Shown here in pieces: positions 1 to 3,000 of a stretch of 6,437 nt of DNA. Positions within the stretch are counted from its first letter, which is position 1. Each line of letters opens with the position of its first letter. Source of the stretch: a virus. Taxonomy: Duplodnaviria > Heunggongvirae > Uroviricota > Caudoviricetes. Where the stretch lies: positions 1-6,437 of IMG/VR virus record IMGVR_UViG_2519899560_000004; one strand, written 5' to 3'. A program made the position numbers.

Positions 1-3000
1 TCATATTCAAAGAGAGCTGCAACCTTAACATATCTGGTCAGATCTCATGCGACTACTTGACGTACGTAGACAACAACATTTATTGATACACAGGATGTTA
101 CGGACATAAAAAAGCCAGCCACTGGGGGAGGCTGGCAAACTCGTAGAGCAAAATGCTGTTACGCAAACTTCGTTACAGGGTCATCCTGCAATACAAAAAA
201 TACACAATATTTAGAAAACTAATAGTGCCATGTGCGATTTTTAAGATTTTGTTATTAATTGTGGTCGCACCTTCCTTTCTGTGTACTTTCCGTATAGCTC
301 AGAGGATTCTGGGTACAAAAAAACCCCGCTCATCGACGGGGTCGGCTGCGTGGCAATGCAACCACTCTTATCATGATATGCAGATTTTTACGTACGTAAA
401 ATACTTTTTAGCACCCCATTCAATCGGGAACGGAATCAAGGATTCCGCGACACTTCACACCACCTCTGGTGGGGATTTGCGGGGCCTTTTTTTACCAATT
501 AGCGATGTATTCAGTCGGCGTTGTTTCGTGCTTCTGCATGAACGGCACCAGCTTTGCGGCCATTTATAATCCCCACTTTTTCTGAATCCAAAAAATTTCT
601 CAATTTCTTCATCAGAGGAACCTACTTTTCCACAGACGGGGCAAGTGTGCTTTTTATCATTCTCGGTTTTCTGCACCCCAATTAACTTACGAATTAATGG
701 CTTGATGTCATAGACGTTCCGCAAATCATCATCATGACCGATTTGAGCGTAACTTATCTTCTGCAACATTCCTTTCCCCTCCAGTTCCTGAAGGCGTCCT
801 TGTATAATGGCTCGGGAGGCGCGCATTCTGGTAGCCAAAAGAGATATTGACGGTAATATTTGCGAATCCACATTCTGGTGAAATGAAACCAAATTAGCCA
901 GCAAAACTAATTCTGAATGGGTAATATTTAGTCTTCTCTGATATTTCAACAGCTCTCTAAGAATAACGAACCAGTCAATTCTTAAAATATCATCATTCCA
1001 CAGAGACAGATCATTGTCTTCCGCCTCCAGAAAATCTTCAATGTCCATTTTGCCCCCTGTTCATTGTTGTATCTATGTTATTAACAGGTAGATAACTCTT
1101 ACGTCCCTGTACTATAAAGTAAACAGCATAACGCTCACAAATTGACACACTTCACATAGTGAACGGCAAACGCCTCCTGTCAGAGGCGTTGCACATATCG
1201 GTCCATTTCCAGTCTGACACCAAGTAACATTAACATCCCTTCAACCACACCCTCCGCTTTCTGTAATTTTTTACCGATAGTTCCATCAGAGCATCCATGC
1301 TTACGGGCCAGTGCCATGAACGTCTCCCCCAACACGTAGTAATCCACCAGCAAGTCATGCAGATCGCTGTTGTTCCTGTTAAGGCGAGCCATGCACCCGC
1401 ATATAATCATCGCGTCATCGTCACAACACTGTGGACGTGATTTTACTTTTTCGGGGATCAGCCTCTTAAATCCGGCAGCAATGGGCGACCATGTAACATC
1501 CTCATAGTTATTTGCCGCCCATGCACCCCAGCGCTCAAGAACCTGCCGGATATCACGCATCAGTATCTTTACCCCATCCGCGATGAACCATAAGGACGCC
1601 ATTGACGACGGCATGCTTTTTCGCATCTTTATCATCAATGTATTTTCTGACCGTGTTGCGACTACAGTTCAGTGTTCGGGCTACTTCGGTCTGATTTCCA
1701 TATGCCTCAACGAGCATGTCAGGGATGGTTTTTACGGTGAACGTCATGCGGCCTCACTTCTGCTGTTTCGCAGGTCTTTAAGTTTCTGTTGATACTCTGC
1801 CTTGATCGCCTTGCACTCTTCGACAGTCCAGCGATAGCGGTTATGGTTTGATTCGATTTCCTCTACTGCTTCCTGCCCGATGCGGCTAATCAGTTCGACG
1901 CGATACGGAACGAGATTTCCGCTTTTGTGCTGGTTGCACACCACGCATTGCTTGTGAATATTGCGTTCATCAAATCGGAGTTGAGGTGCCGCAGCAGTTG
2001 TCCGGTAATGTCCGGCATCCCACTGAGCAGACGTGAGCGTTCCGCACGAGATACATGGTAAGTCGCGGTCTCTTTCTCTGATGAAGGCGTTTACGGCTTG
2101 TTGGGCTTGTTTAATCCAGTAACTGCGGGGCTTTAAGGCGAGTTTTCGAATCTTCAGTTTATCTTTCTGTTTCTGCTCCTCTCGTCGTCGTTTCTTCTCT
2201 GCTGTTTTTTCCGCCTTTTCGCGTTCTTTATTTCGTCGTTCGAGCGCTAATTTAGTTCCGTGTTCCGGGCTGCACCACCACTGATTTGAGAATGCCGGGT
2301 GAAACCATTCCTTACAGATTTTGCATTTCCTTCGCGCTGGTTTAGCCATTAAGCAGCCTCCCCTGTTACTTTAAGCATTCCGTTATCTAGCAGCTTTCTG
2401 GTCAGCCACTGTTGACCACGCCCGGTGATTTTTGTGGTGAACGATATCTGTATTCCGTGATTTGTATTGACCGCTGTTTCTTTCACTGTGAAATAGCCGC
2501 GATCCATATATTCCTGCATTGGCACATTGCGCCGGGAACCTGAAGCAATAAGGATTTTGTGTTCGCGCATCCACGCAAACAGTTTGTTTGGACCAATACC
2601 AACAACCTTTGCATAGTTTCCAATCAAAATTCCGCTGGCCTCGCCAACGCGATCGGCAAACTCAACTTTAGGTGCTGCGAGAGCAAGCTGTTTCTCCAGT
2701 TCAGCCTTCTGGTCTTCAAGGTCGGCCGCAAGGCGCAATGCCTCAGAAAAGGTTTGTGGTATTTTCGCGGTTGCCCCTTCGAGTTCTCGCCAGCGGTCAA
2801 CAAGGCGAGCGGTGAATTCCGGCGACAACTGGGCAACGACAATAATGCTGTCGCGCTTACCTTGTTCGCCCTCAAAAACGTAAGCCTCTACGCCACGAAG
2901 TAATCCTAAGTTATTGATTTTTTCGAAAACCACCATTGGGGGATTTCGGATCACACCTCGAACCGCCAGTCGTTCAATGGATTGTTTCACCTTGTCATGA

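Follow-up and report, generated by a model that had tools for sequence, protein, structure and literature searches.

Which gene has come to lie between the antiterminator gene Q and the late promoter PR' of certain Stx1-converting lambdoid phages, and what might it do there? The question was raised by a 6,437-nucleotide (nt) stretch of a Stx1-converting lambdoid phage (IMG/VR record IMGVR_UViG_2519899560_000004, positions 1 to 6,437; hereafter the window), in which an earlier note had pointed out an open reading frame (ORF) of 197 amino acids (aa) at 455–1048. The ORF was present and is encoded on the minus strand, with its ATG at 1048–1046 and its stop codon at 457–455. The record of phage 7888 names the same gene 'ORF1' (CAC12886), the name used here, and in every annotation the product is hypothetical. 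Comparison of alleles showed that ORF1 is a real gene under purifying selection. It encodes an accessory protein in which a winged helix is joined to a new partner domain; the location of the gene is unusual, and the fold family of the N-terminal domain is already known. The explanation we favour, with a probability of roughly one half, is that ORF1 is a sequence-specific, self-regulated DNA-binding accessory protein, either a regulator or a maintenance factor.

Over positions 1–1700, the window was 97.7% identical to Shigella phage 75/02 Stx, 98% to phage 7888 and 93.5% to POCJ13, and positions 300–1180 were 100% identical to an Stx1a prophage of E. coli O157:H7 PV15-279. The stx1A gene starts 121 nt past the left edge of the window. 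All genes of the window are on the minus strand and in the usual nin-region order. The features needed first are the following:

Whole window, minus strand: gene order NinB, HNH/NUMOD4 endonuclease, Dam, two antirepressor-type genes, NinG, NinH, Q.
410..1192, minus strand: AT-rich ORF1 module of 783 bp, delimited by blastn break points.
455..1048, minus strand: ORF1, 197 aa, with an acidic N-terminus, a DnaD_N-type winged helix, a zinc ribbon and a basic tail.
1053..1057, minus strand: ribosome-binding site GGGGG, 5 nt before the ORF1 ATG.
1180..1560, minus strand: Q antiterminator, short 126-aa allele (PF06530, E = 2.7e-51; 381-nt coding sequence in RefSeq).

In blastn comparisons with phage BP-4795 and prophage Sakai Sp15, window positions 1–409 and 1193–1700 were conserved and 410–1192 were absent. 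Both elements have 45 bp, including the last Q codons, in place of the 783-bp module. The upstream junction of the module lies inside Q and creates the C-terminus ..MDRYVQRL* (126 aa), compared with 18 extra residues in BP-4795 and Sakai Sp15 (the BP-4795 Q has 144 aa and ends in ..ELPGGRTSVFYQRKNSLRS*). The short Q is found in inducible phages, so that these last 18 residues seem dispensable. Where the module is missing, the −35 hexamer of PR' overlaps the last Q codons, the two stretches concerned being window positions 1180–1192 and 388–409. The 3' end of Q is at 1180 and ORF1 begins 131 nt further downstream on the same strand. This order (126-aa Q, 131-nt spacer, ORF1, approximately 48 nt, PR') was kept in every copy with flanks examined, and the arrangement of the module was invariant in nine full-length IMG/VR loci and the eight annotated E. 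coli or Shigella loci inspected, the latter drawn from 19 module-bearing E. coli genomes. The flanks of the module were variable, with NinG or RusA upstream and stx1, tRNAs plus TerB, or nothing downstream.

The position of ORF1 relative to the late promoter was determined by comparison with the Sakai Stx prophages, in both of which the PR' start and the tR' 3' end are 258 nt apart (Sy et al., StxS work, PMC7547250). The published Sakai PR'/tR' coordinates were offset by approximately 136–142 nt relative to NC_002695.2 and were re-anchored on the terminator and the 258-nt length. In Sakai Sp5, the distance from the start given by the hexamers TTTACG-16-TATCAT to the end of the tR' T-run is exactly 258 nt. 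The PR'–tR' block was 93–97% identical between the window and Sp5, Sp15 and BP-4795, and the following elements were located in the window:

366..400, minus strand: late promoter PR', with −35 TTTACG (400–395), −10 TATCAT (378–373) and the start at approximately 366.
108..137, minus strand: tR', GCCAGCC..GGCTGGC plus T6, the annotated terminator in AJ279086 (−14.5 kcal/mol).
315..343, minus strand: terminator-like hairpin plus U7, at approximately +24 to +52 of the PR' transcript (−13.2 kcal/mol).
430..448, minus strand: small hairpin CGGAATC-CTT-GATTCCG after the ORF1 stop (−9.7 kcal/mol, z = −2.9).

Since PR' and tR' both map downstream of the ORF1 stop, ORF1 falls outside the late operon. 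On this map it closes the early-right operon, lying between Q and PR', and is not part of the Q-dependent late transcript. The slot for late cargo such as stx or tRNAs, to which ORF1 had previously been assigned, thus proved to be the wrong one. An StxS-type leader RNA extends in the window from approximately 366 to 109, with its 3' end at tR'. The hairpin at 430–448 lacks a U-run and is therefore not an intrinsic terminator. The hairpin at 315–343 is situated well before tR' and was preserved through base changes in Sp5 (GACCCCG..CGGGGTT versus GAACCCGC..GCGGGTT); it may be part of the Q-loading or pause region, or the source of a very short RNA. Lambdoid morons and late cargo (stx, tRNAs, bor, lom) are, like ORF1, AT-rich, horizontally acquired, dispensable and located between conserved functions. 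Unlike the late cargo, which is downstream of tR', ORF1 is located upstream of PR', has no terminator of its own and comes with a remodelled Q C-terminus. Among lambdoid accessory genes, such a site between Q and PR', where the end of Q has been rebuilt, is unusual.

All seven independent ORF1 alleles from phages and prophages (protein identity 76–99%) were 594 nt long without indels. The pairwise ratio of non-synonymous to synonymous substitution rates (dN/dS) was 0.18–0.35 for diverged allele pairs, whose dS reached 0.6, and 0.05 for two nearly identical alleles with six differences between them. The most constrained part (dN/dS 0.03–0.2) was the acidic N-terminus, MDIEDFLEAEDNDLSLWNDD, present as had been claimed. 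The ribosome-binding site was GGGGG in 11 of the 14 aligned alleles and GGGG or GGAGG in the remaining three. Frameshifted homologues, which the earlier note had named as possible evidence that the ORF is not translated, were found in three lineages (strain 06-00048, IMG/VR locus L021 and the P0014 cluster), with loss of the second CxxC pair in the P0014 cluster. They were a minority in the face of strong purifying selection elsewhere and therefore indicate that ORF1 is dispensable, not that it is a non-gene.

The GC content of ORF1 was 0.419, compared with 0.461 for the whole window and 0.49–0.52 for the adjacent Q/NinH/NinG stretch, in agreement with the AT-richness noticed before. The module is rare: it was present in 19 of 5,426 complete E. 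coli genomes, and three Shigella Stx1 phages were the only ones with ORF1 among 50,697 phage records. The ORF1 proteins formed 16 clusters, and all named ones came from E. coli. A search of one literature library found no paper treating ORF1 or its plasmid relatives, and no Rfam family overlapped ORF1 or the spacer between Q and ORF1.

The encoded protein consists of two domains, followed by the basic tail:

653..955, minus strand: DnaD N-terminal-type winged helix, residues 32–132.
530..649, minus strand: zinc ribbon, CPxCGK..EIE..FGFR..QSWCRxCR, residues 134–173 (predicted local distance difference test score 89–96).

The winged helix-turn-helix segment was found as it had been quoted, and profile searches supported the DnaD-like and HTH_36 families as candidates for the N-terminal domain. 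The domain had the DnaD_N winged helix that characterizes DnaD. Against HTH_36, ORF1 scored 21.1 bits (Pfam cutoff 25), compared with 44.5 and 38.6 bits for the plasmid relatives P0017 and P0025. The C-x2-C-x28-C-x2-C motif was exact (C136, C139, C168 and C171), and nine columns of the zinc ribbon were invariant (C, P, C, F, G, S, C, C, R). An exhaustive HMMER search showed that the two halves are independent modules, the ribbon being a mobile one. The N-terminal domain also occurred in many stand-alone proteins of 110–190 aa and in true DnaD-like proteins with DnaB_2. The zinc-ribbon signature was found in 63 proteins beyond the close E. coli family (75 of the 167 fetched), where it occurred singly, as tandem copies, as a fusion to ResIII/DEAD helicases or following other winged helix-turn-helix-like N-terminal domains. 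The ribbon matched no family in Pfam or the Protein Data Bank (PDB), and it is an undescribed, well-conserved family meriting its own definition.

No library offered a functional name for ORF1, in line with the earlier note, which could place it in no characterised family; PHROG 34160, of unknown function, matched its full length, and PADLOC and NCBIfam gave nothing usable. The proposed Ogr/Delta zinc finger was absent from the ORF1 Pfam hits at E ≤ 0.1, and for 35 zinc-ribbon members Ogr_Delta was absent at E ≤ 1 from the 25 families listed of the 35 matched. Membership in Lar (PF14354) was rejected at 13.5–23.8 bits (cutoff 28.6). A hhalign comparison with the prophage lineage's own Lar gave 6% probability over 13 columns, covering the first CxxC knuckle only. 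A BFVD fold search returned winged-helix matches only and no two-domain viral relative. Scans of viral contigs with the distant two-domain relatives P0026 and P0017 gave no matches, and a scan with P0025 gave one partial match (50% over residues 70–101); none of the three revealed both domains in a shared context. At the P0049 locus, a 55-aa ORF overlapping a stand-alone DnaD_N gene was examined as a possible split counterpart of the fusion and was not a zinc ribbon. Stand-alone ribbon genes were observed directly after DNA methyltransferase genes in two IMG/VR phage contigs (L022 4696–6126 and L025 3499–5555). The one in L025 is located between two ORFs that jointly match PHROG 26700, which is a single protein elsewhere.

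A plasmid subfamily surfaced in a word-indexed homologue search; an earlier search of this kind had yielded almost nothing from outside E. coli. Beyond the phage lineage, the closest relatives share 39–44% identity and the same architecture, and are encoded on small Enterobacterales plasmids (2.7–9 kb, one of 15.9 kb) from Escherichia, Salmonella, Klebsiella, Citrobacter, Enterobacter, Edwardsiella, Providencia and other hosts. ORF1 matched 71 plasmid records at 39–42% identity, in contrast to its three phage records. The plasmid proteins, annotated as 'helix-turn-helix domain-containing protein' (e.g. WP_123906182 on p3_005237; P0017 and P0204 groups), have approximately 180–205 aa and share with ORF1 the two-domain architecture and the ribbon signature. 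The P0017 group is 39–44% identical to ORF1, and genes of both kinds are AT-rich with an upstream GC hairpin. The plasmid gene was AT-rich relative to its replicon in every case. On the 2,959-bp plasmid p3_005237, seen in at least six isolates, the ORF1 relative is the sole annotated coding sequence. The divergent neighbour of the plasmid gene varied (YafO toxin, NYN nuclease or unknowns). In the P0204-type subgroup, a NYN (RNase-like) gene was divergently paired with the winged-helix gene (L044 176–1835, L052 887–2455), and the pair was conserved at just 47% identity between the two winged-helix proteins.

RNA I (RF00106, 79–104 bits) was detected with Rfam in eight of the nine carrier plasmids examined, including a Pseudocitrobacter contig first taken for a chromosomal island, and Rop and Mob genes were present on some. 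These plasmids are therefore ColE1-type and have no need of the ORF1 relative, or of any Rep, to replicate. Two kinds of repeated sequence accompanied the plasmid genes:

L043, L044, L045, L046, L049–L052 and L030: perfect AT-rich palindrome of 40–50 bp, ending 14–37 nt before the start codon, in all nine plasmid copies (example AATCATAATAACAATACCTATATA|TATAGGTATTGTTATTATGATT).
L043 1768–1932, L046 3529–3645, L030 7125–7218 and L050 1850–1960: arrays of 6–11 repeats with 11–12-bp phasing, 0.4–1.4 kb downstream of the gene, in four of the nine plasmids (cores GCAAACAGA, ACTACAG and GACTACAAAAG).

The palindrome sequence differed by protein subgroup. These palindromes may serve as operators, form cruciforms, or act as single-strand initiation or promoter signals on plasmids that enter as single-stranded DNA. 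A GC-rich hairpin (and AATAAT) preceded the palindrome in seven of the nine homologues; L044 and L052 had the AT-richer hairpin GGATGACATTTATGTCA(T/C)CC instead. The ACTACAG core recurred inside the upstream palindrome of L052. Array binding was rejected as a core mechanism: arrays were absent from the phage and present in only four plasmids, and L051 has none even though its protein is 58.8% identical to P0017, as is that of array-bearing L043. No array of the 11-bp type was found in the window or in the complete 75/02 genome.

The control region ahead of the phage gene resembles its plasmid counterpart in part, with short palindromes in place of the 40–50-bp ones, no array, and an extra basic C-terminal tail of approximately 20 residues on the protein:

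1170..1191, minus strand: GC-rich hairpin AACGCCTC-TGACAG-GAGGCGTT, overlapping the Q stop and the first module bases (−17.7 kcal/mol, z = −3.8).
1150..1162, minus strand: perfect 13-bp palindrome TTCAC-TAT-GTGAA, a candidate operator, kept in 13 of 14 aligned alleles.
1111..1140, minus strand: promoter-like site TTGTGA-18-TATAGT, 9 of 12 positions matching (chance alone predicts 3.3 sites of this quality in the region).

The GC-rich hairpin, the equivalent of the one on the plasmids, was followed by a weak U-tract in the window and by a real U-run in allele L008, and compensatory changes were seen among other alleles (e.g. AGCGCCTG/CAGGCGCT). The phage module retains short palindromes only, namely TTCACTATGTGAA and TGTTAATAACA; ORF1 may bind the one at 1150–1162. 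By its match score, the promoter-like site is no better than chance. A CRP-like half-site (TGTGA-N6-TCAAT, 1156–1141), spotted by eye, was discarded, its spacing to the putative −10 being off. The spacer also contains a block, CGTAAGAGTTATC, at 1081–1093 (minus strand), which was found in 13 of 14 aligned alleles between variable flanks; the most diverged allele, L008, retains just AAGTTATC.

From these comparisons we infer that ORF1 binds DNA and regulates itself, and likewise how it is transcribed and what role, if any, it has. In the favoured explanation, the 783-bp module would have come from the small ColE1-type enterobacterial plasmid pool and landed in the 3' end of Q, ahead of PR'. It would be a self-contained plasmid-type unit, made up of the hairpin, a control region and the gene, which a lambdoid lineage acquired once. 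Winged-helix dimers or oligomers would occupy the palindromic sites ahead of the protein's own gene, and the zinc ribbon and basic tail would supply a second contact with nucleic acid or a partner. ORF1 would be expressed together with Q, as the last early-right gene, by N-modified polymerase reading through from PR, and may have a weak promoter of its own as well. Our guess for its role is that it modulates how co-resident mobile DNA is replicated or maintained. The data contain no hint of a radically new mechanism.

Several observations weigh against this explanation. The phage palindromes have just 11–13 bp, compared with 40–50 bp on the plasmids, and in the allele alignment the promoter-like site had a conserved −35 but a variable −10, which together make autoregulation from an own promoter a weak proposition for the phage. 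The link between palindrome and protein consists of position and co-variation over just five subgroups. DNA binding by DnaD is attributed mainly to its C-terminal domain, which has no counterpart in ORF1, and its N-terminal domain serves oligomerization and DnaA contact (PDB 2v79, 8ojj); sequence-specific recognition by a winged helix of this type is therefore not assured. Finally, any role of ORF1 must be conditional, because three allele lineages are frameshifted.

The alternative that survives best, although we consider it on the whole unlikely, is a replication adaptor or interference factor, in which the winged helix would oligomerize and contact DnaA, DnaB, primase or PriA in the manner of DnaD or of RepA_N initiators. 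The ribbon would be a primase-like or single-stranded DNA-binding element, and the protein would assist or tune primosome assembly or copy number of ColE1-type plasmids and, in the phage, boost or redirect replication while Q is being made. HTH_36/RepA_N Reps (Col(MG828) pCE10D Rep; pSK41 RepA, PDB 4pta) share the winged-helix superfamily, the small size and palindromes or iterons near the gene. The pCE10D Rep was nevertheless rejected as a close relative (29% identity over 72 residues, remote only), and a plasmid Rep that is the sole replication determinant with origin iterons is not what the carriers had, given RNA I in eight and arrays in four of the nine. Replication of the former eight by RNA II/RNA I, and the lack of arrays in five plasmids including L051 and in the phage genome, speak against an adaptor. 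The comparison with DnaD (PF21984; PDB 2vn2, 2v79, 8ojj) also ends at the winged helix: DnaB_2/DDBH2 (PF07261) was not matched in ORF1 at E ≤ 0.1, and where DnaD has this C-terminal domain, ORF1 residues 133–197 are ribbon and basic tail. Unlike Firmicute-type DnaD, ORF1 is carried only by phages, prophages or plasmids of Enterobacterales, which to our knowledge, E. coli included, lack the DnaD–DnaB–DnaI pathway. Among the carrier phages, moreover, two replication modules without relation to each other occur (lambda O with a DnaB-type helicase; a DnaT-like protein with DnaC), and ORF1 has no similarity to the phage's own O protein. Competition with the phage's own initiator at the origin was likewise rejected: the PV15-279 initiator is of the lambda O type, unlike ORF1, and phage 75/02 has a different replication module.

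Improbable, in our judgement, is a factor in conflicts between elements, which would act on incoming or competing DNA through superinfection exclusion, anti-phage defence or anti-restriction. Such a role would fit a gene that is the sole cargo of very small, widespread plasmids and has YafO, NYN and an AAA_21 ATPase among its variable neighbours. It would also fit a zinc ribbon that is fused to ResIII/type-I-R-like helicases, stands beside phage DNA methyltransferases in two of the four contigs examined and has Lar restriction alleviation as its top, though sub-threshold, Pfam hit. The lineage's own Lar, however, aligned only at the first knuckle, and ORF1 has no enzymatic or effector domain. 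The anti-phage activity suggested in the earlier note found no credible match in PADLOC-DB 2.0 (best E = 0.018, to LmuB and Cas8b fragments). A constant gene among varying neighbours suggests a backbone gene beside a cargo hotspot, and nothing supports a defence role of ORF1.

It is less probable still that ORF1 is a decaying hitch-hiker, that is, a plasmid gene which landed beside Q by accident and is functionless in the phage. The three frameshifted lineages and the rarity of the gene would be expected of such a remnant. The dN/dS among diverged phage-borne alleles, the perfect length conservation, the very strongly conserved acidic N-terminus and the retention of ORF1 while both flanks were reshuffled would not. 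Hardly credible is a late-operon moron whose transcription, together with that of stx1 and the lysis genes, would start at PR' and depend on Q: ORF1 does lie between Q and the lysis genes and is AT-rich as many morons are, but the PR' hexamers, the start and tR' are all downstream of its stop, and the PR'–tR' block abuts Q directly in module-less phages.

The remainder of the window contains a P1/P7-type immunity cassette in the nin region (3877–4075, minus strand), detected with Rfam, and a homing-endonuclease gene:

3877–3961, minus strand: C4 antisense RNA (Rfam, 75 bits).
3988–4062, minus strand: isrK (Rfam, 77 bits).
4023–4075, minus strand: a1/b1 target sites (Rfam).
3146–3823, minus strand: ORF6N/P22_AR_C antirepressor gene, with the immunity cassette just upstream.
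4802–5404, minus strand: HNH/NUMOD4 homing-endonuclease gene between NinB and Dam, GC content 36–41%.

Together, the C4/isrK cassette and the antirepressor gene look like an RNA-controlled antirepressor switch in a Stx1 phage. The endonuclease gene is another AT-rich patch of the window besides ORF1, and is a second recent insertion, since the PV15-279 prophage has Dam directly beside NinB. In the genome of phage 75/02 Stx, a GAACAG run of 5.5 copies (10735–10767) was observed within the DnaT-like replication gene, and a 12-bp repeat of 4.4 copies, AAATCGATCATG (28346–28398), within the small terminase ('DNA packaging protein') gene. They are possible origin and packaging-site repeats.

In toxin-converting phages of Shigella and E. 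coli, a few hundred bases separate ORF1 from stx1, and the gene has been labelled 'hypothetical' since 2001. Its site upstream of PR' strikes it from the Q-controlled cargo that is co-expressed with the toxin. The locus also indicates that the Q/PR' junction can take insertions that remodel the Q C-terminus, which is relevant wherever Q alleles or 'pR' regions' are typed to predict toxin output. The occurrence of this family as the sole gene on 3-kb plasmids offers an easy experimental entry to the benefit of 'cryptic' plasmids. A bolder reading, for which we see rather little chance, is that the plasmid proteins, their palindromes and the arrays constitute an undescribed ColE1-type maintenance or interference system, and that the phage copy manipulates small plasmids or its own DNA. 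If this were true, an autoregulated, oligomerizing binder would control the copy number, stability or exclusion of small plasmids, and the copy in Stx1 phages, made together with Q, would act on co-resident plasmids or phage DNA during lytic growth. The zinc ribbon would then be a new, widespread nucleic-acid-targeting module common to helicases and phage methyltransferase loci.

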